Of a DNA stretch of 64,000 nucleotides, positions 1-61,188 are shown in pieces (positions within the stretch are counted from its first letter, which is position 1; each line of letters opens with the position of its first letter). The stretch spans positions 544,001 to 608,000 of the forward strand of contig OY969699.1 in NCBI GenBank assembly GCA_963702025.1, written 5' to 3'. Under the pieces are notes generated by a model, which saw only the letters and a list, made by a program, of their open reading frames with translations, had not been told where the DNA came from and did not search any database. This stretch comes from an uncultured bacterium. Lineage in GTDB: Bacteria > Babelota > Babeliae > Babelales > Vermiphilaceae. The translations under genes and the position numbers were made by a program.

Positions 1-800
1 AGAGCGGTTCGGCGTACTAGCGGCATTCCTGGTCTATAACGAATTGAACCACCAACCGCATCCAAATCCGCACCATAGCCTAAAAGGATTTCCGCGGCTT
101 CAACGTTATCGTCTGCACATGCATACATTAAAGGGGTAGTTTTAGATTCACCAATGCCATTCTGGCTCGCCTTATGATCCAGCAAAAGTGATAGCATCCT
201 TTGATCATCATTATCGATCGCTATAAATAATGCATTTTGACTAATTTTATTTACCTCGTTGATATCCGCAACAGAACGATCAAGCATATCTTTTACTAAT
301 GCATATTCTTTGTTTTTTATCAGATTCATCAATAATGTGTTGCCTTTGTCATCCCGTACACTGCGAATTTGAGGTACCTTTTTAAGAAAATCTACGATCT
401 CTGATTTTTTACCTTTGCGTGCTTTTTTAACTAACCATGAAATGGTTGAATCGCAATCGGACTGTTTAGCAAAAAAGTTTTCAAACCATTCTTTTGCGCC
501 TTTGGTACTTACTTGGTAAGCAACCTCTTCTATGCAATCAGCGGGGCAATATTTAAAAAGATAATTGATGAGAGCGCGCGTAGATTCCGTGTCATTGTAA
601 AGTGCATTAGTATCTTTAGACACGCAAGCAAGTGCTCTAAAATCTTTACCTATGGATTTTAGATCTCTACCTTTGACAAGATAATGCTCAATACTTGGGC
701 CTTCCAGTCTCTTTTTAAATTCTTCGTATTTTTTTTCCATGCCATGTGCAAATGGTATTAACACTGAGCAGGCAATTAAACTAATTCGTTTCAAATTCAT
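1..800 (-). CDS. Signal-peptide ankyrin-repeat protein, 3' end outside the window
   Basis: Own translation from the ATG at 800: MNLKRISLIACSVLIPFAHG-MEKKYEE, later ankyrin-like motifs (GNTLLMNLI, TTPLMYACADDNVEAAEILL). RBS GGAGG upstream. Not in the ORF track because it is truncated. Confidence 0.8.
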   Translation of the reverse strand, partial: MNLKRISLIACSVLIPFAHGMEKKYEEFKKRLEGPSIEHYLVKGRDLKSIGKDFRALACVSKDTNALYNDTESTRALINYLFKYCPADCIEEVAYQVSTKGAKEWFENFFAKQSDCDSTISWLVKKARKGKKSEIVDFLKKVPQIRSVRDDKGNTLLMNLIKNKEYALVKDMLDRSVADINEVNKISQNALFIAIDNDDQRMLSLLLDHKASQNGIGESKTTPLMYACADDNVEAAEILLGYGADLDAVGGSIRYRPGMPLVRRTA

Positions 801-814
801 TATATTTTCCTCCA

Positions 815-2560
815 TTATTCATTAATTAATTCTTCCAAAGTTACGTGCCATGCTTCATTATTCAGATACTCGTTAAGCAATTGCTCGGGAGATCTTTCTT
901 CAATGCAACGGTGGTAACATACCTTGTTTTCCGGATCGATTGCATAGCCGTAAATTACAAAAGTTTTTTGTCCATTTTTTTCAATATGGCCGGGCAATGC
1001 GATAAACCAGGTATCTTTGCCATTTTTATCTTTTATAATTTGGCATGATCCATATTCACGAGCGAATTTATCAATATCGATGCTAAAGCCATGATACGCG
1101 GCTGCTGTATCATGAAACTTATATTTTGGATTATTCGGATCATTATATCCTTGATTTTGTAATGCCAGTTTTGCATCTTTAAACCATGCAAAATTACGAG
1201 CATGATAGGCAAAATCAGGAATTTTATTTTTTTGTTTTACTGATAAATAAGCATACAAGTTTATATTATGCATGGGATCGTGGATGCATTGAATGTTTGT
1301 TTGAACAATCTTCTTTTTAGGTTCTTTTAGTTGCCCAATTTTTATTGGTTCAGTTACTGTCTGCACAGCTGGTGCAGTGAAGGATTGTTGTTGTTTTTTT
1401 TCTGGTTTTTTTCGACTATTTTTTTTCTTGCCTTTTGATTTTTTGATAGACGTAGCACTCCCACTTTCTTCTTTTTGTATTATTGAAGTAACTTTTTCTT
1501 TATTTTCTTCAAGAGATTCTAAAGGTGAAAAGTTGTTTGGCAGATTTTGCTGTCCATTGAGCGAAGGATAAATTTTTTTGTTAAGCTCCAATAGAAGTCT
1601 CATGCCATCCTTTGCTAATTTTATATTCCCTATCTTTTGATGCAATTTTGTATTTAATTCTTCTTTCATCGCGCGATATAAATTGGCTATTTTGGGTCTT
1701 TCTTTTACATATTCATCATAAAATTCACTTACCCTCTGTTTGCTTTCTTCATCCCATTTTTCTTGATCTGTTATAATGGGAACCTTATTGAACGTTGTCA
1801 AAAACTTGGATGAAGAAATATTTTTAAGCCTATTTTTTTCCGTTTCTGGGATGGAAAAAGGCACAGGCGAATTAGTGATTTTTACATAGTGATTAATTAA
1901 TGGGTTAAGTCCATCATGTTCCATATTGTTTTTTTTGTTTTCAATAATGGACACAAATGATTTATCAGAGAATAAAGCCCCGGCGAAATGACTATAATTT
2001 TCTTGAAGTCTATTTAATTCTTCATAATTATTGAAATAGTCTTGATAAGTAGTAAAAGCTGTTGCTATTTTTTTTGCCGCTGGAGTATTAACAATATCTA
2101 AATGAGCTATTATGCTACTTAATGATGAGGGATTTTTAATAAAGCTACTAATTGATTCCAAAGCCAATGAAATATATTCGGGTTCCTGCAGTGATTCCTT
2201 GTCTTGGCAAAAGTATCCGAATATATATTTTTCATATCTTTTCTCAGTACTAATCGATTGATTTGCATATGTTTCATTAATCGCTTTAATATGATTTGGT
2301 GCAATATCATTGATTTGAGATTTCATCTTATCACCTAATGATGTAGTTTTCTTAGAAAAAAAATAATATTCATCTTGTGCCGCAAGAAAATTTGTCTGCG
2401 TAACAAGATGAGCTATATATGTATCTAAATCATTTTTTTTGTATCCAATTATTTCCTGAATATCTTTTTGGGAATATGTTTTGGCCTCTGGCTTTTCCAT
2501 GCCAAAAGCTGGTGCGCCTAAAAGGGCGCCTAAAATAAGGGTATATTTGATACTTTTCAT
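815..2560 (-). CDS. Secreted hypothetical protein with Lys-rich NLS-like segment
   Basis: Long ORF. Likely start MKSIKY with GGAGG RBS. Signal peptide ending AFG-MEKP. Basic patch KKSKGKKKNSRKK. Confidence 0.75.
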   Translation of the reverse strand: MKSIKYTLILGALLGAPAFGMEKPEAKTYSQKDIQEIIGYKKNDLDTYIAHLVTQTNFLAAQDEYYFFSKKTTSLGDKMKSQINDIAPNHIKAINETYANQSISTEKRYEKYIFGYFCQDKESLQEPEYISLALESISSFIKNPSSLSSIIAHLDIVNTPAAKKIATAFTTYQDYFNNYEELNRLQENYSHFAGALFSDKSFVSIIENKKNNMEHDGLNPLINHYVKITNSPVPFSIPETEKNRLKNISSSKFLTTFNKVPIITDQEKWDEESKQRVSEFYDEYVKERPKIANLYRAMKEELNTKLHQKIGNIKLAKDGMRLLLELNKKIYPSLNGQQNLPNNFSPLESLEENKEKVTSIIQKEESGSATSIKKSKGKKKNSRKKPEKKQQQSFTAPAVQTVTEPIKIGQLKEPKKKIVQTNIQCIHDPMHNINLYAYLSVKQKNKIPDFAYHARNFAWFKDAKLALQNQGYNDPNNPKYKFHDTAAAYHGFSIDIDKFAREYGSCQIIKDKNGKDTWFIALPGHIEKNGQKTFVIYGYAIDPENKVCYHRCIEERSPEQLLNEYLNNEAWHVTLEELINE

Positions 2561-2653
2561 AAAATCCTCCATTTTCGTCAAAAACAGTATTTATTATTTA
2601 ATAATAGCAAATATTTTCTAATTGTAAAGTGGGGATTTTATAGGTAAATCAGA

Positions 2654-2680
2654 AAAAAAGGGGTCATTTTAGGACCCCTC
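2654..2680 (-). terminator. Intrinsic terminator
   Basis: AGGGGTC/GACCCCT hairpin with an A-tract on + (U-tract on -), downstream of the 2699..3331 gene. Confidence 0.6.
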
Positions 2681-2698
2681 CATATGATAAGTTATTGA

Positions 2699-3331: not shown

Positions 3332-3336
3332 TCCTT

Positions 3337-3374: not shown

Positions 3375-3650
3375 TTATCGTGGCGAGTTGTATACCTCTC
3401 GCTCAAATCCTGAAGTGTTTGGTTGTTCAGAGATTTCGGTTAAATTCGGCTTAACTCGGTAATCGGCGCCCATATCATATCGTATCCAAGCGCCCGGATC
3501 CACTTTGTTTGACCAGTAGAATTCCGGCATTGTATCACTTGATCGCTCAAAGCATTCACCATTAGGGCAATTTTCATATTCCATAGCGTTGCTTAGGAGC
3601 GATACCGACAGGAAGGCCAATAAGAGCGTTAAAGATATGCCCTTATTCAT
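3375..3650 (-). CDS. Small secreted hypothetical protein
   Basis: Signal peptide ending SNA-MEYE. Start overlaps the stop of the upstream gene. Confidence 0.7.
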   Translation of the reverse strand: MNKGISLTLLLAFLSVSLLSNAMEYENCPNGECFERSSDTMPEFYWSNKVDPGAWIRYDMGADYRVKPNLTEISEQPNTSGFEREVYNSPR

Positions 3651-4736: not shown

Positions 4737-5408
4737 ATGAATCCTAAGGTAAAGTTATTTTTGTTTGGAGCATGCATAGGCCTAGGTAGCTTGATTTACG
4801 CCCAAATTCCGGTCAAAAAGGCCCTTAAAACTGGCAGAAACACTAGTATTAACGGGGTAGATTCAGTTTTTATTGAACGCTGGTCGCCAAGAGCGATGGC
4901 GGGCAAAGCTATCTGTGATCAGGATTTGATGGCTCTTTTTGAGGCTGCGCGCTGGGCTCCCTCTTCATATAACGAGCAGCCTTGGCGATTTATTTATGCA
5001 AAACGAGGAACTCCTGCTTGGGATAGGCTGTTTAATTTATTGGTCCCTTTTAACCAAGAATGGTGTAAAAATGGTGCAGCATTAGTAGTCATGATATCCA
5101 AAAAAACAGCTTCGCGAGGCGGGCTCAACCAGTTGCATTCATTCGACACCGGATCTGCGTGGGAAAATCTTGCATTGCAAGGATCATTCAAGGGTTTAGT
5201 GGTTCATGGCATGGGCGGATTTGATTATGAAAAGGCGCGCGCCGTTCTTGGAATTCCCAGCGATTACGCTGTTGAGGCGATGTGTGTGATTGGCCATCCG
5301 GCACCCGCAGATGTTTTGCCCGATTATTTGCGCGAAATGGAAAAGCCATCGGATAGAAAATCACTTGATCAGATTGTGGCTGAAGGCAGTTTTGCTTTTA
5401 AGGAATAA
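4737..5408 (+). CDS. Nitroreductase family protein with signal-like N-terminus
   Basis: RWSPRAM, EAARWAPSSYNEQPWRF and HGMGGFD nitroreductase motifs. Confidence 0.9.
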   Translation: MNPKVKLFLFGACIGLGSLIYAQIPVKKALKTGRNTSINGVDSVFIERWSPRAMAGKAICDQDLMALFEAARWAPSSYNEQPWRFIYAKRGTPAWDRLFNLLVPFNQEWCKNGAALVVMISKKTASRGGLNQLHSFDTGSAWENLALQGSFKGLVVHGMGGFDYEKARAVLGIPSDYAVEAMCVIGHPAPADVLPDYLREMEKPSDRKSLDQIVAEGSFAFKE

Positions 5409-19111: not shown

Positions 19112-19432
19112 ATGCAAATAAAAAAGTTATTTTTAGGACTTGGATTAATAGCAGCGTCTGCATTTGCTATGCAAGATGAAAAAATGAGAGAAATTGTTGA
19201 AATACACTACTTGACCCTGTGTCATGAACATCCGAGCCGTGTGCCAGGCAATGATGAAGAGGTTCATGATATTATTAAGCGATTTAAAGGTGAAGCGGGG
19301 CAAAAATATGTCTGGGGATTATCTGCTACGTTTAAGACACTTCAAGATGCCAAAGATGCGGTGCGCGAATTGAATGCACTGGAACATATCCTTGCGCGGG
19401 CCCATTGGCTCTATCCAAATTTATTTGAATAA
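19112..19432 (+). CDS. Small secreted hypothetical protein
   Basis: AGGAG RBS. Signal peptide AFA-MQDE. Confidence 0.7.
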   Translation: MQIKKLFLGLGLIAASAFAMQDEKMREIVEIHYLTLCHEHPSRVPGNDEEVHDIIKRFKGEAGQKYVWGLSATFKTLQDAKDAVRELNALEHILARAHWLYPNLFE

Positions 19433-20597: not shown

Positions 20598-21065
20598 TTA
20601 ACTGTCTAGCTCTGCTCTGCTAAAAATATCGCCGACCTGGCGAATAAATCCGCCATTATCAACATAGCCTTCAAAGCGATCACTTTGTTCCTCTTTGCCA
20701 CTGTGCATGTGGTAAACGGGAACTTTCTTTTTGTCTCTAAAATAGATAAAGGTTGGGTAACTAGTTATATTAAATTCTTTATGAAGGCCTTTTCCTTGCA
20801 CCACGCTCACCTTTATAAATTTTACATGAGGTAGTGCCTTGGCCGCATCTTCAAAAATATGTTTATTTTTGAATGCCCGGCACACAGGGCAGTCAGGATT
20901 ATAGAATTGAGCTACCACTAATTTATTGCCGGATAAGACAGTATCAAGCTCGGCAGGAGTAGCAACCTCTAGAATTGGGCTTTCAACAGCGGCATAGAGT
21001 AAGGTAGCAACTATTAGCGCTGCCGCTCCAATGCCGGTGCCGCGTAAAATTCGTATAATATTCAT
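20598..21065 (-). CDS. Exported thioredoxin-family protein
   Basis: CPVC motif, YPTF cis-Pro loop, N-terminal hydrophobic segment. Confidence 0.85.
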   Translation of the reverse strand: MNIIRILRGTGIGAAALIVATLLYAAVESPILEVATPAELDTVLSGNKLVVAQFYNPDCPVCRAFKNKHIFEDAAKALPHVKFIKVSVVQGKGLHKEFNITSYPTFIYFRDKKKVPVYHMHSGKEEQSDRFEGYVDNGGFIRQVGDIFSRAELDS

Positions 21066-22876: not shown

Positions 22877-24217
22877 ATGAATATTATATTAAAGCGAGTG
22901 CAAAAGGGGCTATTTATAGCTCTTTTAGCTATTTTTCCAGCTTTTGCTATGCACCAATTGCCTCAGAAGCTGGAGGCCTATTTTGACCTCTTGCCTGTTG
23001 ATCTGCGAATAGAGTTGTGCTCGTATCTTGCTCAAACACCCACAAATCCTAGAGAAAATCAATCATTTCAGCTTGCATCGGCGGCATCAACATTGAGTGA
23101 TTTTTTAAAACTTCCAAGTAATGCCAATCTCTTGAATAACAAAGAATTAACCAAAAAACTTATACAAGAACTTGCTGATCGCTATACCAAAGATCCTATC
23201 GAGGCGGCATTATTTTTAAATACTCCTGAATCAACGCTTTTTTTAGTAAACCGTCTCGGTTTTAATTGGAACGTATCAAGCAAAATTTTAGATATAGTAC
23301 CTCATCTAGAAGGAACTACCCTTAAAAAAGCAGTTGGATTAGCTAAGCATTGCAAGAAAATGCTTGATTTGCCGATAGCATTGAACTACGGGTGGCATGG
23401 TGCACATGATATAAATTATACTATAGATTATTTGGCAGCAGGTTTAGCAGTGGATTTTGATCAAAAAGAAATGATAGGCTATTTAAAATCGTATTATTAC
23501 TCTAATGTGATGAAATACCCAGATGATTGGGGAAGAAAATTTAAATACGAGCTCCAGGCCGCGGCATTACTTGGCGAATACGGGATCGGATGGCTGAAAA
23601 GAAAATTGGAACTGTTTAAAAAAGAAATCGAACTAGATCCCAAGGCACATTCTTATTTTGGTGAAAGGCTTGTCGATCCAATTATTTGTTTGCTAGTAGA
23701 TAATCCACATGACATATCAAAATTTTTAATTGAATCGATTGATACAAAATATTGGCGAATATTATTAGAAGTCGATGCTCGATATTCGAAAGGAAAACTT
23801 GCACAAGCAAGCTTAAAAGCGATGGTATTATATCAGAATAATCCTGAATTGCTTAAAGCAATTATTGATATGCTTCCTGATAAGCATAACGTTAATTGCG
23901 CTGAAATATTTTTAAACTATGTAAAAAAACATTCTATTATTGATTTGGCTTTATGGAAGGTCTTAGTAGCTGCTCCTAACATAGATTGCAATATTCAAGG
24001 TGAAGGAAAGACTCTTTTAATGCTTGCAATAGAACGTGGTAATAAAGATTTAGTAAAAATTATTCTGAGTAATCCATCACTAAATTTAGCTCGGTGTGAT
24101 GACAAAGGCCATAATGCGCTGTGGTATGCGCAGCAATTAACTATCAATAAATTTGAGATTATGGAAATCTTGAAAAAAGCTGGTGCGCATGAGAGGGAAG
24201 CATGCGACATCCAATAA
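22877..24217 (+). CDS. Secreted F-box-like/ankyrin protein with CaaX-like end
   Basis: Signal peptide AFA-MHQ, FDLLPVDLRIELCSYL, ankyrin repeats (GKTLLMLA, GHNALWYA), C-terminus CDIQ. Confidence 0.75.
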   Translation: MNIILKRVQKGLFIALLAIFPAFAMHQLPQKLEAYFDLLPVDLRIELCSYLAQTPTNPRENQSFQLASAASTLSDFLKLPSNANLLNNKELTKKLIQELADRYTKDPIEAALFLNTPESTLFLVNRLGFNWNVSSKILDIVPHLEGTTLKKAVGLAKHCKKMLDLPIALNYGWHGAHDINYTIDYLAAGLAVDFDQKEMIGYLKSYYYSNVMKYPDDWGRKFKYELQAAALLGEYGIGWLKRKLELFKKEIELDPKAHSYFGERLVDPIICLLVDNPHDISKFLIESIDTKYWRILLEVDARYSKGKLAQASLKAMVLYQNNPELLKAIIDMLPDKHNVNCAEIFLNYVKKHSIIDLALWKVLVAAPNIDCNIQGEGKTLLMLAIERGNKDLVKIILSNPSLNLARCDDKGHNALWYAQQLTINKFEIMEILKKAGAHEREACDIQ

Positions 24218-24324
24218 CAATAGGATTTCTTACACTTATTTTTTATTTGTCACCAACGCTAGAATCAAATAGTATTAAATTACCTGCCAGCAATTTTGAG
24301 ATAAAAAAAGAAACCGGAGAAATA

Positions 24325-25229: not shown

Positions 25230-26567
25230 TTACGGGGTCTTTAATTCTTGATTGACCATCTGCTTAATGGCATCAAGCAAATCCCGTTCGGATGCCGGAA
25301 CGGCAGTTTCTAATTGATCCTTAACTCTTTGCCACGTACTCTTTTTGGATCCGTCTTGCTGCAAGAGCCAATTAAGAAGCATTGTTATTGCATTTTTAGA
25401 TTTACCTGTGAGATTTCCCTGCAAAACTTGAAGGAAATCAATAATCGTTTGCTGATTCGATGTCCATTCCGGGTATGCGGTTACTGCTGGCGGTTGTGCG
25501 GCAGGATTTGAGGGTTGTACAGTTGTTTTTTTTCCGGTTAATTCATCTCGAATCACCATCAATGTTTTTCCTAGGTTGTTGCCGCCATTATAATCTGCCC
25601 CGGCTCCCCAATCAGCGTCATTTGCGCCCGCATCTTCAACCAATATTTTATCACCGGTTCCAATAAGCAGTTTCTTTAAGTTATCATCTTGGGTGAATTT
25701 TGCCCGCACCGCTTTTTTCATCACATCATATTTATTAACGTCCCAGTTGCGATCCTTATATTGCGCATTCTGGTTATCTCTGCCAATATCAAACGCTTCT
25801 CGGGGCGTTTGCGCTGCACGTATTTTATCTTGCAGCCACGGTGTGTTGGGATATTTTTGGGCCTGGAAATAATGTTCAGTGGTTGCCCATTTTTTGCCAT
25901 CAATTTCTACCGGCTTTGGCAGGGCATAATAATTAGTAAATTCATAGTAAGGAGCACCTTTTTGATAAAAATAAAGATGGTTTGCATAATTTGGCCCCCA
26001 TGTGCCACCCGTTTTGGTGGTTGACGGCGTGCTTGCTTGACGCGTTTTATTGAGTTGGGCAACTATATCGGGCAAATTGTGTCGTAAAAAATTATACAGG
26101 CCACCGGAAATACTAATTTCTTGGCCCCTATGCATTATTGGATTTTGATTAATGATATCGGAAGCTGGCACCCATATAAAATCATCTTTGATGCGATTCT
26201 TTGCTTGGCTGTACAGTTCTGATCCGGGCTTAAAGTGAACTTGCACAAAATGAAAGAAATCACCCGCATCACTTTTTTTAAATGGCACGCCAATAAAGCT
26301 GACGTCATAGACATTATTTGTTTGTTCAGCCAATGCCTTTTGCGCAACGTCATTAGCTTTCTGGCCGCTTGCAGCGTCTTGTGCAAAATCGCTCCAATAA
26401 CTGGTGCCCTTATTATGTGCCAGTAAAATGTTCCATTGATTGGAATTTCTATCAAATGCCATCGGAATGGCGCGACCTTGCCAACGGCGCTCCATACAAT
26501 TATTCGCGGTGATCAGTGCCAGAAAATTAAGAAAAATGAGAATATGAGATATCCGTTTTGAAATCAT
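25230..26567 (-). CDS. Secreted protein with Nudix-like N-terminal domain and NADAR (YbiA) domain
   Basis: NADAR motifs FTNYY, TEHYFQAQK, KFTQ...LIGTG, LVED...DxDWG and GxNNLG. Confidence 0.85.
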   Translation of the reverse strand: MISKRISHILIFLNFLALITANNCMERRWQGRAIPMAFDRNSNQWNILLAHNKGTSYWSDFAQDAASGQKANDVAQKALAEQTNNVYDVSFIGVPFKKSDAGDFFHFVQVHFKPGSELYSQAKNRIKDDFIWVPASDIINQNPIMHRGQEISISGGLYNFLRHNLPDIVAQLNKTRQASTPSTTKTGGTWGPNYANHLYFYQKGAPYYEFTNYYALPKPVEIDGKKWATTEHYFQAQKYPNTPWLQDKIRAAQTPREAFDIGRDNQNAQYKDRNWDVNKYDVMKKAVRAKFTQDDNLKKLLIGTGDKILVEDAGANDADWGAGADYNGGNNLGKTLMVIRDELTGKKTTVQPSNPAAQPPAVTAYPEWTSNQQTIIDFLQVLQGNLTGKSKNAITMLLNWLLQQDGSKKSTWQRVKDQLETAVPASERDLLDAIKQMVNQELKTP

Positions 26568-27991
26568 GGTTTCTCCTTAATAAGTTCTTCCATAGTTTTT
26601 GCGCCATATTTTTTGAGTAATGTTACTGCAAGGTCTCTGTTCGCTTGCGGGATAGCAAGCTCGCCACCATCACGAACGCCAATCGCTTGGTCGAGCAATG
26701 TGCCCTGGCCCCAATCCCAGGTGTGATATTTTTTATTTATATCTCTTCCTTGGGCAAGAAGCAATTTTATTACCTCTTCATCTCCCATGCTAGCAGCAAT
26801 ATAAAGCGGGTCAAAATATGGTTGCGTGCCGCCTTCAATTTCCTCGGGATTAGCTTGCGCAAGAGCAATTAAATTATTGGCAATATCTTGTGCGGTTATT
26901 TTTTTTGCTTTTCTAAGTTCATCGAGCGTCTTAGCACCGTATTTTTTAAGAAGTTCCACGGCTTTTTGTTTCTTTTCAGGAAAACCGTAACTTTGATCTT
27001 TCAATATTGCTTGAGCAAAATCAAGAAGAGTGCCGTAGCCAAACTCATGTGTATAATAAAATTTATTACTATTGGCACCAGCTGCCAGTAAGATTTTTAG
27101 TGTGTCTTCATGATTGTCAAATGCTGCCTGATACAATGGATCATAGGATGGCCTTGTCCCCGGTTGCAGGCGTGCTCCATGGGCAATGAGATCTTGTACC
27201 AAGGTATTGAATCCGCCGCCTGCCGCACTGGCGAGCGCGCTCAATTCCCCCGGATTGCTTCGATTGGGATCAGCCCCGCTTTCTAATAAAAAATGAATTA
27301 CGGTGGTGTTATTAAACCCTCTATGGCGCATTTCATAAATTGCTTGTTGTAATATTGAGAGAGCCGGTTCACCGCCTTGCATAGGCTCATTGATCAGATT
27401 AATTCCTTGAGTATAGAGTCTTTGTGGATGATACGTAAGAAAATCTTCATTACGCAGTAAGTATCGGGCAAAGAATAGGCTTAAGTCTGTATCTGCTCGG
27501 TTTTTATAAAGATTGCCAGAATTTATGAGAGCTTCCTTTTCATTCATCGAAAGTTTTTTATTTTTAAAGATAATTGCAAAAGTGATGAGTGGACTGTCCG
27601 GGAGTGGAAAATCTTTTATTTCTATCGCTTGTTTCGCATCTATTTGACTGGATGTTCCATCTAATGCTGTTATCAAATAAGAAAGAAAAATATCTTCTCC
27701 TCCCGGCATTTTGTTGATCATTGCCTTTATAATGGTGATAATATCCTGATTTGTTATTTTTTTATTTTTAATAATAATTGCGTTAATTAAATCGTAATAT
27801 ACATCAACTGGTAGTAAAGGAAGTTTTTGTAAGATTTGATCGGCCGGGAGTTGCGCTATTGCTTGTAATGCTTGTGATCTCAGTGATGCGGGTTCATTGA
27901 CGATTTTTTCGCATACCGGTGGTTTTTCCATGCTAGTAACTAGTTGGCCGTATGCTACTGTTATTAGAACAATAATTGTTACTTTTTTCAT
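26564..27991 (-). CDS. Secreted ankyrin-repeat protein with BC/SOCS-box-like N-terminus
   Basis: VTS-MEKP, PASLRSQALQAI...LPLLPVD, ankyrin repeats including a duplicated DPLY...GTLLD...LLKKYGAKT module. Confidence 0.8.
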   Translation of the reverse strand: MKKVTIIVLITVAYGQLVTSMEKPPVCEKIVNEPASLRSQALQAIAQLPADQILQKLPLLPVDVYYDLINAIIIKNKKITNQDIITIIKAMINKMPGGEDIFLSYLITALDGTSSQIDAKQAIEIKDFPLPDSPLITFAIIFKNKKLSMNEKEALINSGNLYKNRADTDLSLFFARYLLRNEDFLTYHPQRLYTQGINLINEPMQGGEPALSILQQAIYEMRHRGFNNTTVIHFLLESGADPNRSNPGELSALASAAGGGFNTLVQDLIAHGARLQPGTRPSYDPLYQAAFDNHEDTLKILLAAGANSNKFYYTHEFGYGTLLDFAQAILKDQSYGFPEKKQKAVELLKKYGAKTLDELRKAKKITAQDIANNLIALAQANPEEIEGGTQPYFDPLYIAASMGDEEVIKLLLAQGRDINKKYHTWDWGQGTLLDQAIGVRDGGELAIPQANRDLAVTLLKKYGAKTMEELIKEKP

Positions 27992-41088: not shown

Positions 41089-42153
41089 ATGTTTTATTTT
41101 TTATCAACATACCTTAAAGATACTCTATTTTTTGCAAATGTATTCCATTATACCAGTTTTCGAGCGATTGCAGCATTTTTAACAGCTCTTTTGGTTGCCC
41201 TTATCTTTGGTGACAGGTTCATTCGGTATTCAGGAACCCTTTTTTTCTCTGGACCCAGAGAGTTCACCCCCGAGACTCATCAAACAAAAAACAAGGTGCC
41301 AACGATGGGCGGAATATTTATTATTGCCTCATTCCTGGTTGCCATAGCCTTCTGGGCAGATTGGGCCAATCCGTTAGTATGGGCTTTTGTGCTTTGCATG
41401 ACAGGGTTCGGGGCTATTGGGTTTTGGGATGATTGGAAAAAAATTACGCAAGGAAAAGGAGTTTCGGCATTTCAGAAGTTTATCGCTCAATGGTCAATGG
41501 CGGCGCTCGTTTGTCTGGTTTGGATCTATTATGGCCATGCACAGACTACCATATCATTTCCCTTTTTTAAGCACATGAACATTGATATTGGGTTATTTTT
41601 TATCCTCTGGGCCATGTTTGTCATAGTGAGCTGCAGCAATGCGGTTAATTTGACTGATGGACTTGATGGGCTTGCTATCAGCTGCTTAATGCCCAATATT
41701 CTTCTATATTCACTTCTTGCATATTTAGCAGGACATTTTATAATTGCGCTTTATCTGCATATTCCCTTTGCTCAAAGCAGTGAAGTTGCTGTTCTTGGGG
41801 CTGCTTTGATAGGTTCAGCTTTTGGTTTTTTTTGGTACAATGCCTACCCTGCCCAAGTATTTATGGGGGACGTTGGTTCGCTCTCGCTGGGTGCCTGCCT
41901 AGCATTGATGGCACTGATGGCAAAGCAAGAAGTGCTACTTGTTATTTCTGGCGGCATTTTTATTGCCGAAACAGTTTCAGTGATGCTGCAAATATTCACT
42001 TATAAACGTTGGAAGAAAAGAATATTTAAAATGGCTCCGTTGCATCACCATTTTGAGTTGATAGGATGGCCCGAATCAAAAATAACTACTCGTTTTAGCA
42101 TTATTTCTGTGGTGCTTTGTTTACTTGCTTTGGTCACCATCAAGCTCAGGTAA
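41089..42153 (+). CDS. mraY: Phospho-N-acetylmuramoyl-pentapeptide transferase
   Basis: PTMGG, NAVNLTDGLDGL, FMGDVGS and MAPLHHHFEL motifs. Confidence 0.97.
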   Translation: MFYFLSTYLKDTLFFANVFHYTSFRAIAAFLTALLVALIFGDRFIRYSGTLFFSGPREFTPETHQTKNKVPTMGGIFIIASFLVAIAFWADWANPLVWAFVLCMTGFGAIGFWDDWKKITQGKGVSAFQKFIAQWSMAALVCLVWIYYGHAQTTISFPFFKHMNIDIGLFFILWAMFVIVSCSNAVNLTDGLDGLAISCLMPNILLYSLLAYLAGHFIIALYLHIPFAQSSEVAVLGAALIGSAFGFFWYNAYPAQVFMGDVGSLSLGACLALMALMAKQEVLLVISGGIFIAETVSVMLQIFTYKRWKKRIFKMAPLHHHFELIGWPESKITTRFSIISVVLCLLALVTIKLR

Positions 42154-42765
42154 TTTTGATGTATAAAATAGTATTTTATGAAGTTGCTTGGCACAGACAT
42201 AAAGATGCGCCGCTTGAGGCATCTGTGCTATGGCTAAGATGTCTTGATAGGTAAGATTATCATTATTCTGCGCATCAGCGGGTATCCCAAAATCCTTTAA
42301 GTATTCTATTAATTCTTTATTTTCCAGACTTGCTGCTTCATGAAGTAATGTGTTGTTGTACATATCGGTGAGACTAAAGTCGGCATCATATTGTTTTAAT
42401 AATTCCAGCATGGCCAGTGTATTATCATTATTTGCCTGGACGGCTTTATGCGCTGCGGTTTTTCCATACCAATTTTGCACATTGGCCGGAGCGCCTGCCT
42501 GTAGCAAGATTTCTGCGGCCTTAAGATTGCCACAAAATGCAGCTCGGTGAAGGGCATTATTCCCGCACTCATCACCATGATAAAGTGTAAAATTGGTTTG
42601 ACACAATCGCGCAATAACTTCTCCCTCCATATCATGCTGGGCCAAAAAATAGAGACGATTGCGGCGGTATTCTTGAGAACGTTTTTTTGATACAGCAAGT
42701 TGATTCATTGCCACTACATTGCTGCCATAGAGAACAAGTAACACGGTCCATTTTAATGATTTCAT
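42121..42765 (-). CDS. Secreted ankyrin-repeat protein
   Basis: VVA-MNQ, GNNALHRAA, GKTAAHKA and NTLLHEAA. Confidence 0.85.
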   Translation of the reverse strand: MKSLKWTVLLVLYGSNVVAMNQLAVSKKRSQEYRRNRLYFLAQHDMEGEVIARLCQTNFTLYHGDECGNNALHRAAFCGNLKAAEILLQAGAPANVQNWYGKTAAHKAVQANNDNTLAMLELLKQYDADFSLTDMYNNTLLHEAASLENKELIEYLKDFGIPADAQNNDNLTYQDILAIAQMPQAAHLYVCAKQLHKILFYTSKLPELDGDQSK

Positions 42766-46178: not shown

Positions 46179-47246
46179 ATGAATAAAATTAGTAAGTTAT
46201 TACTTATTTCAGTATTAGGTTCATTATCGCTACACGCGATGGAACAAGATGCATTTAAAAATTGGGTCAATAAAAAAAGAAAAGAAGTAACCCTTGCTGC
46301 TCCAAAGTCATTATTAACAAATGATCAGATATATAAAGAAGCTGAACAAAATGAGCACGCTGTGGCTATCATTAATGCAACAACACAAAGAAGTGCCAAA
46401 AGAACAAGAAAGTTTGCTCAAAGCGATCCGGGATCAGCAAAAAATATGATGACTTTTATTAACCAAAAACAAAAAAGTGTTGATTTTGAAGATCCTGAAT
46501 TGAATCGATTTGCAGCAGTCGTTGCTTTAACGGAATTTGCTAAGCCATCAAATGATTTAGTTCTTGCTATGTTGGAATATGCTAAGCTGGAAGAATCTAA
46601 AACTAATAATAAACCAATCGAAAAAACCGATGAAATCTCGGATAGTGAACCAGTCCAAGAGAGTAATGCGATCCCGGTTAAGGTAGCCGCACAAAATAGG
46701 TCGCCAGTTGTTGAAAAAGATGGTGATGAGATCATGAGCGTAATATCTGATGAAGAAGCGCCACTCTACGATTTTAGTAACTATGATGAAGATTTATTCA
46801 CTGCAGTTCCAACGATAGCAGAACCAAATTTTGCGGCGGAAATTGCTCAAATTGAAGAGATCAATCAAATCAAAGAAGCATCTCCAGTTAAGGCGGAAAT
46901 TGAGTTAGTTCTAGCTCCTATAGAAGCGATTGCACTAAATCCTCTTGAAGTTGCTCCTCGTCAGAAGCAAACTATTTCTCCAGCTGCTTTAGTTCAAAAT
47001 CCTATTGAAGAGATAGCGCCAAGCCCTTTTGAAGTTATAGCACCAAGACGACCTTTTCAAGGTGAAATTGACACATTTAATCAGGCATTGAAAAAACATT
47101 GCAGACTTAAAGGGAAAGAATTGCTTGATGCTCTTGCGAGTGAAATAACCTTGAATGATCCGACATCTTTCTTAAGTGTTGCACAGGCAATCAATTCGAA
47201 AGAGGCTGTTGATTTTGCACAGTATTGTATAGCAAAACAAAAATAA
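46179..47246 (+). CDS. Secreted hypothetical protein
   Basis: GGAGG RBS, signal peptide LHA-MEQD, acidic/Pro-rich central region. Confidence 0.7.
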   Translation: MNKISKLLLISVLGSLSLHAMEQDAFKNWVNKKRKEVTLAAPKSLLTNDQIYKEAEQNEHAVAIINATTQRSAKRTRKFAQSDPGSAKNMMTFINQKQKSVDFEDPELNRFAAVVALTEFAKPSNDLVLAMLEYAKLEESKTNNKPIEKTDEISDSEPVQESNAIPVKVAAQNRSPVVEKDGDEIMSVISDEEAPLYDFSNYDEDLFTAVPTIAEPNFAAEIAQIEEINQIKEASPVKAEIELVLAPIEAIALNPLEVAPRQKQTISPAALVQNPIEEIAPSPFEVIAPRRPFQGEIDTFNQALKKHCRLKGKELLDALASEITLNDPTSFLSVAQAINSKEAVDFAQYCIAKQK

Positions 47247-48845: not shown

Positions 48846-49742
48846 ATGAATAAGAGAATCTTTACTCCATTAATATTAAATACGATTGCCATATGCGCAA
48901 TGGAAAAGCCATATGTTGCACCGTCAAAGATCCAGGATTTGGATGCAGTTAAAAAGGTGGTTGTTGATTATCTTAACAGAAATACGGCACCATTTTACAA
49001 AGTGGGGAGCCCTTATTGCCGACCAGAAGTTGATTTATCAAAGTCTCATGAAGAAGAAGTTAACAAAGGATTATTCTGCTTTTATGAAGATAAGGCTGTT
49101 GTATGTGCTCATGGCAGTGCCCATTTTGTAGATCTTTTTCAAAAAAAGGTAGTTAGAGTAATTCCGATTGGTAGGAAGCTTGAAGAAAGTGATAGAACAA
49201 ATCCCATGTTTACCAGTGCTGGCTGTGGAAAAATAGCAGGTTCGGATAAGGTACAAGTATTTTTAGGAGAACAAAGTGGAAGGATTTCAGCCTTCAGCCT
49301 TAAAAATGAATTTGAAGTAGATTCACCCAGAGAAATAGAAGCAACGCCGGAGATTCCTAAAACATTTGGCATTGTTCCTGGTAAAGTTCTTTCGTTCCAT
49401 TTTGCACCCGATGGTAAACAGGTTGCTGTGAAGTATGTAACTAATGTTCCGTGTATGGCACTCAGCGTTGCGTTTTTAAAGCTCTTATCGTCATCGCAAA
49501 AAAGTGGTTCATACTTAGCTGCCGAATCTAAAAAAAATAATCGCCGATCATGGATGCCATCTGCTACCAATTATGATTGGTCTGTTTTTGCAACCCGCGA
49601 ATGCATAAATGGCATTGAAGATATTCGGTTTGAGAATGAATTTTGCATAACAAAATGTGCACTTACCAAAAATGAAGAGAAATGGAAATTGATAAATCCA
49701 GAAACTACCCGTCCTGAATTAGTAAAAATAGAAGAAAAATAA
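48846..49742 (+). CDS. Secreted hypothetical protein
   Basis: GAGG RBS, short signal peptide ICA-MEKP. Confidence 0.65.
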   Translation: MNKRIFTPLILNTIAICAMEKPYVAPSKIQDLDAVKKVVVDYLNRNTAPFYKVGSPYCRPEVDLSKSHEEEVNKGLFCFYEDKAVVCAHGSAHFVDLFQKKVVRVIPIGRKLEESDRTNPMFTSAGCGKIAGSDKVQVFLGEQSGRISAFSLKNEFEVDSPREIEATPEIPKTFGIVPGKVLSFHFAPDGKQVAVKYVTNVPCMALSVAFLKLLSSSQKSGSYLAAESKKNNRRSWMPSATNYDWSVFATRECINGIEDIRFENEFCITKCALTKNEEKWKLINPETTRPELVKIEEK

Positions 49743-50005: not shown

Positions 50006-50317
50006 ATGAAATTCTTAGCACTTTCTATTCTTATGAGTACACCAATTATCGTTTCGATGGAAAAACATCCATCATTTGAGGAACTTCAACAGGTAGTTTA
50101 CCCAAGTAAACTCGTTAAAGTTCCGTCTTTAAATGGCTATATTACTGAAGTTGAGATTCCTACGGAAACGGAAGAATATATTTATAAGGGTAAAGATATT
50201 GGTTTTGAATTAGTGAAAATAAAAGAAATCAAAACCAGATATCATCTTACTCTTGACCAGAAGCAACTTGTAGTGGCATGTGTTCAAATTTTTGATCGTC
50301 CTGTGTCACCATGGTAA
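50006..50317 (+). CDS. Small secreted hypothetical protein
   Basis: GAGG RBS, signal peptide IVS-MEKH. Confidence 0.65.
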   Translation: MKFLALSILMSTPIIVSMEKHPSFEELQQVVYPSKLVKVPSLNGYITEVEIPTETEEYIYKGKDIGFELVKIKEIKTRYHLTLDQKQLVVACVQIFDRPVSPW

Positions 50318-51260: not shown

Positions 51261-52161
51261 ATATTTTGGTTGGTTCAGGTCTTTTTTGAGCATGGCCACT
51301 CGTTATTAAATCCAAACATTGATTACTGCAAGTATTTTGATACTTTTCTAAGCATGCAGCGCAACAAATAAAATGTCTATTACAGGCTGCACGCAAACAA
51401 TTAGTGTAATCATCACACGGTGCACAGCAAATATAACAGCTGCCTAAAATGTCGTCAGTAACTTTTACTGTAATTCGTCCATCAAAAACATAATTTTTGC
51501 CTTTAAAAAATCCATTGGGAAATTGTTCAACATACCGGTGGATGCCACCCTTAATCTGATAAACTTTTTTTGTTACTCCTTTCAATGCAACGTAGGCCGA
51601 TGCGCGTTCACAACGAATGCCGCCGGTGCAAAACATGAGAACATCTTTTTCTTTCAGCTTATCGAGGTTGTTGTCTACATAGGTAGGAAAATCTCTAAAA
51701 TGGGTTATATCGGGCCTCAGTGCACCCGGAATGGTGCCAATAGCAGATTCATAAGGATTGCGGCAATCAATAATAACCAGATCTTTATTTTTTTGCGCAA
51801 GAAGTTCATGGGCTTGTGCCGGTTCTAAATGAATGCCTCCTTGATCAGCTGTTGCCGTTGCCGGATCGAGGCCAATATTTACAATTTCTTTTTTAACAAC
51901 AATACGAAGGCGCGGAAAGCGGCTATGTTCAGTGTTACTTTCTTTAAAATCTATTCCGTCAAACAACGGATGATTATTCATCGCTTTTTTGTAGAGCTGG
52001 ATATTTTCATTTTCTCCGCCCAGTGTTGCATTGATTCCTTCATGCGCAAGAATAACGCGCCCTTTAAGAGCGAGTTTGTAACAAAGATCTTTTTGCCATT
52101 GTAAAATTTTATTTGGATATTCTATGTAAACATATTTGTAGAATAAAATTATTGTTTGCAT
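51226..52161 (-). CDS. trhO: Rhodanese-domain tRNA uridine(34) hydroxylase TrhO (UPF0176)
   Basis: LFYKY, EGINATL, DCRNPYE, FCTGGIRCE and YVFDGR motifs. Confidence 0.9.
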   Translation of the reverse strand: MQTIILFYKYVYIEYPNKILQWQKDLCYKLALKGRVILAHEGINATLGGENENIQLYKKAMNNHPLFDGIDFKESNTEHSRFPRLRIVVKKEIVNIGLDPATATADQGGIHLEPAQAHELLAQKNKDLVIIDCRNPYESAIGTIPGALRPDITHFRDFPTYVDNNLDKLKEKDVLMFCTGGIRCERASAYVALKGVTKKVYQIKGGIHRYVEQFPNGFFKGKNYVFDGRITVKVTDDILGSCYICCAPCDDYTNCLRAACNRHFICCAACLEKYQNTCSNQCLDLITSGHAQKRPEPTKIYESSHSNKCSA

Positions 52162-53066
52162 TGTTGCTGCTCTTGTATACCTGAGCTAAGAGTTATTTTC
52201 CGATTGTTTTTAGTTTCAACTTTACAGCCCAGTGCTTTTAAAATTTGTTGCTTCTTTTCCGATATATTTAATGATATCCCATAGGCAAGTGGGGTCAACT
52301 TCTGTGTATTCAAACAATTGAACCCCAGATCATTGTGAATCAAAAAATGAGAAACAGTTTCAAATTCTATGTCGTCGAGCTTTTGCTCGCAGAGAGCATG
52401 AAGTAAAGAGTTGCCATTATTCTTTTGTTTATAGTTTTCATTTAACATAATGAGCGAATAAAGGGATAAACTGCGAGACAGTTCTTTATTTGTTTTTTTT
52501 GAAAGTTCTTTGATGTGTTCAAATGGTTGGGCCTCAAAGGCTTCAATGCTATCATGGTGCGAACATATTTTAATGCCATGTTGGGCAATTTGTACATAGG
52601 TATTTATGCAATCAACGTAATTTTTAAACGTTTGATTGTTTTTGTCACCTTCATCCATAGTTTCTTGTGCGTCAGTAAGAAATTCGTTAATGGTATTCAA
52701 TGAACAGCAATGTTGCTCTAATTCTTGAATAACAGAAATGAGCACCCATTTTTTTTCAAATTCATCTTTATTTATAGCGCATAATGAGAGCTTGCCATAG
52801 TTTGAAATTTTTTTTGATAGAGTAGCTAGCGAATTTGGTGGAATCATTGATGAGGGACGTTCATAAAAATAGGTGTGTGCTCGTTGCAACAGGCGCACCG
52901 GGTTATTGTCGTCACAAATGGCCAGTAAAAATTTATTAATTTTTAATTCTTTAAACAACGAGTTTGTATAGCTTAAGATTTGCTTCACTCGGCCCGACGC
53001 TTTTTCCATGGGCTGGCACGTGCAAGAGATTAATAACAATAATGAAAAAACAAAAGATAGATTCAT
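52149..53066 (-). CDS. Secreted hypothetical protein with degenerate ankyrin-like C-terminus
   Basis: CQP-MEKA, GNSLLHAL and LTPLAY. Confidence 0.65.
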   Translation of the reverse strand: MNLSFVFSLLLLISCTCQPMEKASGRVKQILSYTNSLFKELKINKFLLAICDDNNPVRLLQRAHTYFYERPSSMIPPNSLATLSKKISNYGKLSLCAINKDEFEKKWVLISVIQELEQHCCSLNTINEFLTDAQETMDEGDKNNQTFKNYVDCINTYVQIAQHGIKICSHHDSIEAFEAQPFEHIKELSKKTNKELSRSLSLYSLIMLNENYKQKNNGNSLLHALCEQKLDDIEFETVSHFLIHNDLGFNCLNTQKLTPLAYGISLNISEKKQQILKALGCKVETKNNRKITLSSGIQEQQQCKQ

Positions 53067-53081: not shown

Positions 53082-53339
53082 TTATTTTTCGCTTGGAATA
53101 TAAGGACGTTCGTAAAAGCTTTTGAGTAAGTATTTAGGATCAACCTCTGTTACTTGTTGGAGTGGTTTATCTTGTTCGAATTGCTTTTTTATGCTGGGAT
53201 CTTGCGTGCCATCATACTCATCTTGCAAAAAATAAATAAAATGCGAGTGGTATGAAAGGGCAGGGATGGAATTTAACATCCCGTTGGCAGCACAAGCGGT
53301 AAGTAGGCTCAATATCGGTATAAAAAATAGTTTCTCCAT
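53082..53339 (-). CDS. Small secreted hypothetical protein
   Basis: Signal peptide. Translationally coupled to the ABC permease gene. Confidence 0.55.
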   Translation of the reverse strand: MEKLFFIPILSLLTACAANGMLNSIPALSYHSHFIYFLQDEYDGTQDPSIKKQFEQDKPLQQVTEVDPKYLLKSFYERPYIPSEK

Positions 53340-57754: not shown

Positions 57755-57839
57755 TATGAAATCCTTTTTTTCTTCTACTTAATCTTTATATGGTGATACC
57801 AAGAAAACAAAATGCTGTCATCTTACTTTTGGTTAAACT

Positions 57840-58370: not shown

Positions 58371-58379
58371 GGAATAGAT

Positions 58380-58895
58380 ATGGAATTGAGATTTCATAAA
58401 GAACTGTTTTTCTTGATACTTTCCTTTTTCCCAACCGTCGGCATGAGTAGCAAAGACAAAGTGCTCGCGTTACTCTTAAAAAATGCCACACAAGGATCTT
58501 TGGGTATTAAATTGCATAATTCACAGATTCTGTCTCGCGAAAAAGCACAGTACGATAAAACAACAGATATTGCGTATCAAAAAATTCATTTATCTTGGCA
58601 TGAATTTGCTGAAGATGTTCAGACAATCCATTTTTCGTTGATTGAGCCAAATGATCAGGAAGAAAAAGCACCCATTAATATATCAGTTATTTTTTTTCGT
58701 AAATTCCTTTTGCAATCTCGAAATGACAGCCAAAAGTTGCGCATGCATGTTATGAATACAAAGGGCCCTCGAGATTTTAACAGTTTTGATATACCCATAT
58801 CAGAATCTGATGAAACTCGCTCGGCCCTCGAGCTTTTTGTTGATGGCCCACATCTAGATATGGCCAAAATTAAGGTTCAGCTGACATCAGAATAA
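58380..58895 (+). CDS. Secreted hypothetical protein
   Basis: Signal-like N-terminus TVG-MSSK, AGGA RBS. Confidence 0.6.
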   Translation: MELRFHKELFFLILSFFPTVGMSSKDKVLALLLKNATQGSLGIKLHNSQILSREKAQYDKTTDIAYQKIHLSWHEFAEDVQTIHFSLIEPNDQEEKAPINISVIFFRKFLLQSRNDSQKLRMHVMNTKGPRDFNSFDIPISESDETRSALELFVDGPHLDMAKIKVQLTSE

Positions 58896-58998
58896 TAAAA
58901 ACTCTTGCAAAACCATTTCCCTTTTTATATAATTACAATTAGAAATATATTTTAACTGACAGCAAGCCAATAAAGTGCTTAGCTAAAAGGGATTTTTT

Positions 58999-59559
58999 AT
59001 GAAGAGAGAAGCTGTTACTCACTGTTTATTTTCAATTGTTGCGCTTGTTTTGGGCGCATCAAGCTTTGCAATGGAAAAGCCGCGACCCACTAGTTTAAAA
59101 AAACCGAATGACATAGTGGTTACCATCGATAACACTACCGGCAAAAAGAACTATGTGTTAATCGGCAAAAAGAACTATGTGTTAATTCCAAAAAATTTTC
59201 CGCCAGATTATAGAGGTGGAGACAAAGTGTTGTTGGAGATTCCTGCGGGCCAGATTGCCAATACAGAAGTTGAATGGGCGTCACGTGTTCGAGGTCCTGC
59301 CACTACGGGTGTCTGGGAAATAGTGGATCAATCAAATAGGTCTCGTGAATTGATAGGCATGAGATTAACTTTTGGGGTTTTTGGAGAGAATGTTGAATTG
59401 AGCATAGCAGCCACCCAGATCGATGAAATAGCAACCATTCCTGTTGCAAAACAAGAAGATGCTACTTTTACTGTTGCTATAAAACTTAATAATGATGATC
59501 CTGCTCAAACAACAATTAAATTATCAACAACGATACACGAAAAAGAAAAACTAGAATAA
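58999..59559 (+). CDS. Secreted hypothetical protein
   Basis: Signal peptide SFA-MEKP. Internal 24-bp duplication. Confidence 0.7.
   Translation: MKREAVTHCLFSIVALVLGASSFAMEKPRPTSLKKPNDIVVTIDNTTGKKNYVLIGKKNYVLIPKNFPPDYRGGDKVLLEIPAGQIANTEVEWASRVRGPATTGVWEIVDQSNRSRELIGMRLTFGVFGENVELSIAATQIDEIATIPVAKQEDATFTVAIKLNNDDPAQTTIKLSTTIHEKEKLE
59139..59186 (+). repeat. Perfect 24-bp tandem duplication
   Basis: CGGCAAAAAGAACTATGTGTTAAT twice, encoding GKKNYVLI twice. Confidence 0.95.
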
Positions 59560-59583
59560 TTTTAGGAAATAAGGAAATATTCG

Positions 59584-60138
59584 ATGAATAATAATAAGAT
59601 GTTAAAAAATATTTTTGCCTCAATTCTCATTTTTTGCTTGCAGTGTAGCGCGATGGAACAGGGTCAAATTAGTCAACAATCAAGCTTTATGGCAACTATT
59701 GGATCAAATGATATTGCTGAGATTGAACAAGAATTGAAAGCGGGAATGAATCCCAATTTTGTTTTCTACGGCTATTCTCCCTTAACTTTAGCCGCAGATG
59801 ACGTTGCTGCTGATGATGCCGACGAAAAAGTAGTTGAATTACTTTTAAGATATAATGCGGACGTTAATATGCCTAATTGGGATACTATGACACCCTTAAT
59901 GTATGCTGCTAAAAGGGGCAATGCAAGCATGGTGCAATTACTATTGGCTCATAAAGCCAAAGTAAATATTGCAGATCAATTTAATAATACTGCGTTAACT
60001 TTTGCTGCACAAAATGGGGATAAAAAGATCTATAATATGTTAGTTGCAGCTGGTGCCACTCAAGATGCCAGAAGTAAGCAATTCCACCGAACGCCCCGGG
60101 AAATAATGCAAGAGCGGTCTGGCCGAAGTCGGGAATAA
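59584..60138 (+). CDS. Secreted ankyrin-repeat protein
   Basis: CSA-MEQG, TPLMYAA and TALTFAA. Confidence 0.88.
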   Translation: MNNNKMLKNIFASILIFCLQCSAMEQGQISQQSSFMATIGSNDIAEIEQELKAGMNPNFVFYGYSPLTLAADDVAADDADEKVVELLLRYNADVNMPNWDTMTPLMYAAKRGNASMVQLLLAHKAKVNIADQFNNTALTFAAQNGDKKIYNMLVAAGATQDARSKQFHRTPREIMQERSGRSRE

Positions 60139-60288
60139 GTTTTAACCCCTCTTCTTTGCCAGGTTAGTACAGGTTCAAATCTCTATATAATTTATATCTG
60201 AACTTATATATTCCAATTTGATAGACAAAATTGCATATTTTGCTATTATTAGGGAGAAATAGCAAGTTAACCCTAAAATGACGTTTTT

Positions 60289-61188
60289 ATGAAATATACC
60301 TATTTATTATCATTTTTGATGGCGACATGGCTTGTTTTGCCCGTAATTGCAATGGAAATGCCCGAAAAAGAGCTGGCGCAAAAAGAATTACATAATAATT
60401 CAACACAATTAGCGATCATCCAAGAATCACCTAAGAGCAGATTAAAAACAGAAGATGGTGAAGATCTTAATGAGCAACTTCTTCAGGCTGTCGGCAGGGG
60501 TACGGTAAAGGAAGTTCGAAAGCTCTTGGCTCGAGGTGCTGACGTTAATACAAGGAATAGTTGTAAGGACACGCCACTTTACATAGCGATAAAACGTGAC
60601 AATCCAGAAATCATTAAACTGTTATTAGAGCAACCTGATATTAAGGTGAACTTAAAAGGAGGATACTCCAATACTACGCCGCTTGTTGAAGCAGTTTATA
60701 ATAATAAGCAAGAAATAGTTAAATTGCTTCTTGCTAAACAAGACATTGATGTAAATATGCTTCCAGATTATTATCAATGGGCGCCGCTGTATTGCGCAGT
60801 AATGAATAATAATCTTGAAATAGCAAATCTGTTGCTTGTTCGACCTGATATTAATTTGAATAAAAAATCTTCATATGGTTTTCGTGCTCTTGATCGGGCT
60901 CTAATCAGAAATAATCCAAACATGATTAAGTTGCTTCTCAACCATCAATCAACACCACCGCAAGTAGCCGCCGCATTGCGAACATTGCATAAAGACGGAA
61001 GTACCTATTTTTCATGTTTACCACGGGATCTTATTGAGATGCTAATGCTCTATCATCGCACTTATAGCATTAGCAAAAAACAGGCAAAAAAGCCATTTAT
61101 ACAAAACAAAAAAATGAAAGAATTAATCGCATCGGAATTGGCAAAACGATCACAGGATAATAAAAAAGATAAGTGTATAATTTCATAA
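60289..61188 (+). CDS. Secreted ankyrin protein with C-terminal F-box-like motif and CaaX box
   Basis: VIA-MEMP, 5 ankyrin repeats, YFSCLPRDLIEML, C-terminus KKDKCIIS. Confidence 0.88.
   Translation: MKYTYLLSFLMATWLVLPVIAMEMPEKELAQKELHNNSTQLAIIQESPKSRLKTEDGEDLNEQLLQAVGRGTVKEVRKLLARGADVNTRNSCKDTPLYIAIKRDNPEIIKLLLEQPDIKVNLKGGYSNTTPLVEAVYNNKQEIVKLLLAKQDIDVNMLPDYYQWAPLYCAVMNNNLEIANLLLVRPDINLNKKSSYGFRALDRALIRNNPNMIKLLLNHQSTPPQVAAALRTLHKDGSTYFSCLPRDLIEMLMLYHRTYSISKKQAKKPFIQNKKMKELIASELAKRSQDNKKDKCIIS

Follow-up and report, generated by a model that had tools for sequence, protein, structure and literature searches.

The 64,000-nucleotide (nt) stretch of DNA analysed here (the window) lies within the single-contig genome (1,596,033 bases) of a protist parasite of the phylum Babelota (Dependentiae/TM6). 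This genome is referred to below as G000; other G codes denote sampled Babelota relatives and f codes families among these relatives. Its placement is supported by GspF, whose named relatives are assigned to Candidatus Babeliales or Dependentiae at identities of 83% and below, one match at 66% being labelled otherwise. In G000, the Sec-type leaders of otherwise unrelated proteins are followed directly by a methionine, at the position (+1) predicted to become the mature N-terminus upon cleavage by signal peptidase. This +1 rule is real, is under selection, varies between lineages and falls on a likely effector set. It offers a one-line criterion marking most of this set, about 20% of the genes and mostly orphans, in a widespread and barely cultured phylum of protist parasites.

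The original prediction listed 22 window genes in which a signal-like leader runs straight into Met, with Met-Glu (ME) in 13 of them and MEKP in four. Both counts were reproduced, and all 22 starts open in-frame reading frames with a leader made of n-, h- (hydrophobic) and c-regions, the tripeptide given for each, and Met at residue 18-31 (Table 1). Genes were predicted genome-wide with our own caller (1504 genes in G000) and leaders with our own heuristic, which scores the h-region and residues -1 and -3 and is blind to Met (+1 is ignored, except that Pro is forbidden); its false positives include some membrane anchors and cytoplasmic enzymes. The blind site coincided exactly with the Met in 14 of the 22 genes and lay 1-5 residues away in the remaining eight. 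As controls, E. coli gave Ala at +1 in 7/25 and Met in 0/25, while Bizionia gave Gln in 9/17, recovering the Q-rule, and Met in 0/17.

Across G000 (completeness 95%, ATP/ADP-translocase genes present), the blind +1 residue was Met in 183 of 643 signal-peptide-like soluble proteins (28.5%) against a background of 1.85% (binomial p 3e-156), so that the proposed enrichment was borne out at the scale of the genome. The excess forms a single-position peak, the other free offsets giving 0.9-6.7%, and Gln (40/643) is not dominant. Mets that follow an h-region are preceded by Ala, Gly or Ser in 65% of 446 cases, compared with 26% of 179 in proteins without a leader. A relaxed leader-plus-Met set comprises 304 of the 1504 genes, with an estimated chance share of up to about a tenth, and falls into 192 clusters with unrelated mature regions. 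The consensus likewise extended over +1 to +4, Met being followed by Glu (53%), Lys (24%) and Pro (28%), vs 11%, 8% and 7% at these positions in 314 leader proteins without Met. Glu, Asp, Asn or Gln, which give a NatB-type start, occupied +2 in 218/304 tagged proteins vs 92/314 non-Met ones, and bulky hydrophobic residues in 15/304 vs 81/314. MEKP itself is present in 14 unrelated clusters. Further downstream, residues +5 to +24 of the tagged proteins are richer in disorder-promoting residues by composition (0.515 vs 0.454, p 3e-11), a fraction that is 0.459 vs 0.436 deeper into the proteins. Separately, the leader of gene 27991-29001 (minus strand) is followed by LEKQ, a Leu counterpart of the MEK start, and LEKA, IEKL and FEPP are further such starts in G000, one of them from a family that otherwise begins with Met. 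As a class, hydrophobic stand-ins for Met (Leu, Ile, Val or Phe before Glu) were rejected for want of enrichment (8/33 vs 84/281).

The Met is also conserved. In strictly chosen paralogue pairs (mean identity 44%) it was retained in 36/47, compared with 54/165 for internal Mets; an initial run on 250 pairs, blurred by ankyrin alignments, had given 0.41 for this Met and 0.18-0.35 for nearby positions. All three homologues of the metallo-beta-lactamase-fold gene at 11751..13208 (38-46% identity, differing leaders) keep leader and Met, as ME. We conclude that the +1 Met is under selection. One could argue instead that leaders were added to genes whose former start was this Met, or that translation also initiates there and yields a cytoplasmic form; the domain of 11751..13208 does begin at the Met, and our caller picked the tag Met as the start of some genes. 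However, leaders are conserved among homologues, and a relic would be expected to decay, yet the Met is the best-conserved position nearby. The dual start that the original prediction had kept as an alternative was rejected, a ribosome-binding site preceding the second Met in only 2/304 genes (0.7%), compared with 6.1% for the 6915 internal Mets; ahead of the first ATG, 84% of these genes have a Shine-Dalgarno-like site, a value inflated by the partial use of that score in choosing starts. We therefore regard a relic or second start as very improbable. Because 2/304 lies within the synonymous-codon null for the 304 genes (mean 5.6, range 1-12), we make no claim of selection against initiation. 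The arrangement is nonetheless a trap for gene calling, in which starts may be misplaced at the second Met: our caller set the starts of G000 genes 431908, 1060601 and 1151352 at the tag Met, losing the leader, and standard annotation may do likewise.

The tag had been predicted to fall on putative effectors and to spare exported envelope-type proteins. In the window, the tag is present on all six Pfam ankyrin proteins, on both leucine-rich repeat (LRR) proteins and on the NADAR protein, and absent from VanX, peroxiredoxin, thioredoxin and Gly-rich proteins, as claimed. The description of the LRR genes 8436 and 10069 as Skp1-LRR did not hold, since neither has a Pfam Skp1 domain; a paralogue gave a weak Skp1_POZ match. 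Genome-wide, 70 of 113 ankyrin proteins were placed in the tagged set by script, and inspection by eye of the remaining 43 found 26 with leader and Met, 14 with a leader but no Met and 3 fragments. Pfam domains were then tallied for leader-bearing proteins from 400 kb of G000, in hand-picked and partly Met-dense regions: 110 Met proteins (84 non-ankyrin and 26 called beforehand as ankyrin with a local profile) and 68 non-Met proteins, the categories being our own hand tally and several matches lying below curated cut-offs. Eukaryote-like domains (ankyrin, LRR, WD40, RING, zinc finger, tyrosine phosphatase) were found in 42/110 Met vs 4/68 non-Met proteins (p 5e-7), and envelope-type families in 3/110 vs 12/68. 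The split by protein type is strong but not absolute, a tagged VanX paralogue existing in G000. CaaX-like C-termini, which need host prenyltransferases, were sought with a loose pattern and found in 12/304 tagged proteins vs 1/339 (p 0.001). CaaX boxes occur on many ankyrin proteins, for instance CIIS in the window gene 60289 and CTIS, CVIS and CLIS in the relative G054 (loci L283-L284), which suggests that CaaX-ended ankyrins may undergo host prenylation across families. Nuclear-localisation motifs after the Met were not significantly enriched (12/304 vs 5/314, p 0.09). The eukaryote-like domains and CaaX ends thus uphold the view that the tag marks likely host-directed proteins, and most leader proteins that have homologues in other families lack the Met. 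Altogether, the tag marks the fast-evolving, host-like portion of the secretome, with exceptions in both directions. Leaders are also seen on usually cytoplasmic enzymes, in the window (4737-5408 and 21062-21730) and across G000, among them a nitroreductase, a peroxiredoxin, at least nine GNATs, MutS-like and Fic proteins and short-chain dehydrogenases.

To follow the rule across the phylum, 120 relatives were sampled, all of one order; counts are descriptive and carry no test, as kin are not independent. Blind +1 Met, counted in 24 genomes, reached 21/30 in sampled stretches of G006, from the same genus, then 8/26 in G009, 4/17 in G021, 2/38 in G016, 0/32 in G060 and 0/67 in G082, and six further genera from the family of G000 together had 6/45 (two of the six doubtful). 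A DNA pattern made of an h-region, Ala or Gly, Met and Asp or Glu gave 37 matches in G000 and reached 10 or more in 32/120 relatives, distributed over f1 (18/44), f10 (7/7), f3 (3/15), f5 (2/5), f6 (1/11) and f13 (1/7), with none in ten other families; a control pattern carrying an Ile codon instead gave at most 7. MEKP is local, since Ala or Gly followed by MEKP occurs 19 times in G000 and 0-2 times in each of the 120 relatives (a permuted control was run). Elsewhere another residue takes the place of Met: Ser was found at +1 in 20/67 proteins of G082, where Met had 0/67, and in 16/82 of G054, an excess spotted post hoc that recurred when held-out regions were examined (10/36 and 10/47). A DNA pattern for Ser proved too noisy for mapping and was abandoned. 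Leader-bearing ankyrins start with Ser or Gly in 5/5 cases in G082 and with Ala or Ser in 3/3 in G017. In G054, 21/29 blind calls fell in the class Met, Ser, Ala, Thr, Gly or Val, but 8 of the 9 Met calls were mis-sited, and by eye the family concerned shows mostly Ala-Gln starts with Ser, Met and Phe variants. The corresponding counts were 0/3 in G016, 1/3 in G010, 1/2 in G019 and 0/1 in G079. The +1 rule is therefore patchy across the phylum, and some lineages prefer Ser or Ala. In G095, a tandem family at locus L250 (C1:300001-320000) comprises nine leader-bearing proteins of ~500 residues, six of which have Thr-Glu or Thr-Thr starts.

The original prediction also invoked an undescribed second export step after Sec. 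This novelty was not sustained: G000 encodes one SecA, one LepB, BamA and a complete type II secretion system (T2SS), with GspC bearing a PDZ domain, two GspD, GspE (over the cut-off), F, G, three N-methyl pseudopilins, L and M, GspK being assigned by position in the absence of a Pfam match. Since the full T2SS is present, the outer-membrane step is probably performed by a known machine, and the tagged proteins are likely to leave through it. A second GspE/PilB-like ATPase and further pilins accompany this system. A TolC-family channel (PF02321), the mark of a Sec-TolC route, was not found in this 95% complete genome, nor was ClpS, considered as a candidate reader of the N-terminus. In the available text of the earlier reports, the T2SS is given as the sole secretion system of Babela (PMC4378268) and two gspD are noted in every TM6 genome then studied (PMC4776705). 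Babela grows inside a vacuole, and a further membrane crossing may therefore be needed. The loci concerned in G000 (C1:365535-373997, 226250-231089, 835530-837271 and 868071-870145) hold a pair of secretins within a single operon and, beside the T2SS, another set of pilins; of their two GspE/PilB-like ATPases, one seems to be split between two genes.

What would a Met at this position provide? Sec export usually leaves an arbitrary new N-terminus, and many such ends are degrons in a eukaryotic cytosol. We lean, at somewhat under an even chance, towards the Met being a host-compatible new N-terminus that resists attack by host N-degron machinery or peptidases. Sec-type leaders end just before a conserved Met on ~300 unrelated proteins; signal peptidase is predicted to cut at that bond and would free proteins beginning with Met-Glu, Met-Gln, Met-Asp or Met-Asn, which would exit via the T2SS and may reach the host cytosol, where the Met end would shield them from host N-degron and peptidase machinery. 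For lineages whose ankyrins begin with Ser or Ala, the other common eukaryotic start would serve the same purpose. A secreted bacterial protein that falls under the host N-end rule offers a precedent (PMC3755998, available text), and Ser-acidic and Met-acidic starts are the canonical substrate types of NatA (SESS) and NatB (MDEL) in the accessible part of PMC7782713. Of the original proposal, the host-like N-terminus is thus kept as our favoured, though tentative, explanation, and its acetylation by NatB as plausible.

Several points weigh against this explanation. Where a small residue precedes x-Glu-Lys or x-Glu-x-Pro in G000, x is Met in 83/97 cases, Ser in 1, Val in 1 and Thr or Ala in 0, although a stabilising N-terminus would also be provided by Thr, Val, Ser or Ala. 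Among G000 ankyrins 14/113, and among leader-bearing G016 ankyrins 3/3, are untagged, many with a destabilising first residue. Ala or Ser at +1 is the ordinary signal-peptidase consensus, as the E. coli control illustrates, and Ser was unenriched in held-out regions of G017 (2/20). Unrelated endosymbiont-like metagenome loci, around relatives of a Paracaedibacter plasmid gene, gave +1 Met in 1/62, in a small sample of unverified taxonomy. Delivery to the cytosol is not a given, because Babela lives in a vacuole. Finally, NatB is mainly ribosome-associated and co-translational and, according to the part of PMC7782713 available, reads two residues, so that the excess of Lys at +3 and Pro at +4 is left unexplained.

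Alternatively, signal peptidase may unmask a code of two to four residues (Met-Glu-x-Pro; Ser or Ala before an acidic residue in sister lineages) which, together with the presumably flexible stretch behind it, would be read by a component of the T2SS or pilus, or by a later vacuole-crossing translocon, to draw hundreds of unrelated effectors from the periplasm. The four-residue, Met-specific consensus of G000, the recurrence of MEKP in unrelated clusters, the polar and likely flexible stretch after the Met, the mostly untagged envelope-type proteins, and the full T2SS with its additional ATPase and pilins all fit such an export tag. Yet secretins are present in 5/5 Met-poor relatives tested, so Met is not a general requirement of the machine, and the tag is patchy even within the single family f1. 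MEKP is confined to G000 in any number, Met, Ser and Ala coexist within one genome, and many leader-bearing enzymes needing cytosolic cofactors are untagged. We consider this export tag possible but on the unlikely side. The interchange of chemically unlike residues within and between genomes while the T2SS stays is what would be expected of a host-side code; we rank the host-style N-terminus above the export tag, and the two are not mutually exclusive.

A further explanation places the requirement in processing: Met-Glu would help LepB fix its cut on weak leaders, and the leaders would have spread from founders by N-terminal reshuffling. Among 196 proteins with an h-region followed by ME, 14 have Pro and 9 have Thr at -1, and 49 have Leu at -3, residues unusual at these positions for signal peptidase I. 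A few unrelated genes do share leader DNA, for example 84 nt at 73%. But the same single LepB must also cut ~314 non-Met leaders, the -1 profile is alike at blind Met and non-Met sites (Ala 67% vs 69%), cross-family DNA matches mostly span just 17-45 nt, and the link to host-like domains is left unexplained. This explanation thus appears improbable, although less so than a relic start. A recent leader cassette was rejected as well, since beyond a few pairs unrelated genes share no long DNA. LepB of G000 has NLTKR at the position of the E. coli motif DYIKR, which, together with the odd -1 and -3 residues, hints at an enzyme of relaxed specificity.

The nearest described rule is the Q-rule of Bacteroidetes, in which the residue that signal peptidase I uncovers is likewise biased throughout a lineage and whose proposed role, in the available text, is the stability of exported proteins (PMC5837995, PMC10653852). 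Unlike it, the Babelota rule uses Met (or Ser or Ala) instead of Gln, is patchy within its phylum and falls largely on lineage-specific host-like proteins. The TcpF and CofJ substrates of type IVb pili resemble the tagged proteins in their Sec leader and in a secretin-based second step, which is probable for the latter, and their flexible mature N-terminal segment may have a counterpart in the stretch of shifted composition after the Met. According to the accessible text of PMC10120004, the mature N-terminal segment of TcpF binds a minor pilin, each machine has one substrate, and the signal spans ~24 residues with an internal aromatic; Babelota would have hundreds of substrates and a motif of 1-4 residues. 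The same source describes T2SS substrate recognition as poorly understood. If either of our two leading explanations is true, the rule represents a secretome-wide match to a host N-terminal code or a short linear type II secretion signal. An unmasked N-terminal code read in export would amount to such a linear signal for the T2SS, or to a bacterial equivalent of PEXEL. In Plasmodium, the PEXEL mature end (x-Glu/Gln/Asp) is a protease-made N-terminus directing the next step; this is a system of the eukaryotic endoplasmic reticulum (ER), and the likeness is one of analogy alone. The same holds for the +1 Phe of diatom plastid proteins, another protease-made N-terminus of a eukaryotic ER system (bioRxiv, available text). 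Earlier Babelota reports describe, for the same phylum, two gspD and many leader-bearing ankyrins exported via Sec and type II, and no +1 rule is seen in their available text (PMC4378268, PMC4776705, PMC6561590). Methionine is not mentioned once in the main text of these three or of PMC12172432, although the supplements of the four papers may list cleavage sites. A literature search by title and abstract, which covered few subscription papers, found no account of a +1 Met rule in Babelota.

Table 1. Window genes in which the leader is followed by Met. Coordinates are window positions; the N-terminus column gives the tripeptide before the predicted cut and the first residues after it.
Protein	N-terminus	Coordinates	Strand	Met codon	Remarks
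Ankyrin protein	AHG-MEKK	1..800	-	740	Gene extends past window (295 residues in genome)
Orphan, 581 residues	AFG-MEKP	815..2560	-	2500	Leader DNA similar to leaders of unrelated genes elsewhere in genome
Orphan, 91 residues	SNA-MEYE	3375..3650	-	3584	
LRR protein	LGA-MKRV	8436..10049	+	8499	
LRR protein	LLA-MKRS	10069..11514	+	10159	
Metallo-beta-lactamase-fold protein	LFG-MTVT	11751..13208	-	13142	
Orphan, 195 residues	IHA-MENA	15701..16288	-	16222	
Orphan, 218 residues	NGA-MNKD	16285..16941	-	16875	
Orphan, 106 residues	AFA-MQDE	19112..19432	+	19169	
Ankyrin protein	AFA-MHQL	22877..24217	+	22949	C-terminal CDIQ (CaaX-like)
NADAR protein	NNC-MERR	25230..26567	-	26495	
Ankyrin protein	VTS-MEKP	26564..27991	-	27931	
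Ankyrin protein	VVA-MNQL	42121..42765	-	42708	
Orphan, 355 residues	LHA-MEQD	46179..47246	+	46239	
Orphan, 298 residues	ICA-MEKP	48846..49742	+	48900	
Orphan, 103 residues	IVS-MEKH	50006..50317	+	50057	
Orphan, 305 residues	CQP-MEKA	52149..53066	-	53009	Pro at -1
Orphan, 85 residues	ANG-MLNS	53082..53339	-	53279	Weakest case; lipoprotein-like Cys close by
Orphan, 171 residues	TVG-MSSK	58380..58895	+	58443	
Orphan, 186 residues	SFA-MEKP	58999..59559	+	59071	
Ankyrin protein	CSA-MEQG	59584..60138	+	59653	
Ankyrin protein	VIA-MEMP	60289..61188	+	60352	C-terminal CIIS (CaaX box)

An Rfam scan of the window returned zero RNA families, and an ESM Atlas search using a leader gave no feature match. 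Elsewhere in the window, genes for Ku and an ATP-dependent DNA ligase, assigned by Pfam and forming a non-homologous end-joining pair, lie at 21931-22779 and 24202-25227, with a Met-tagged ankyrin gene between them.

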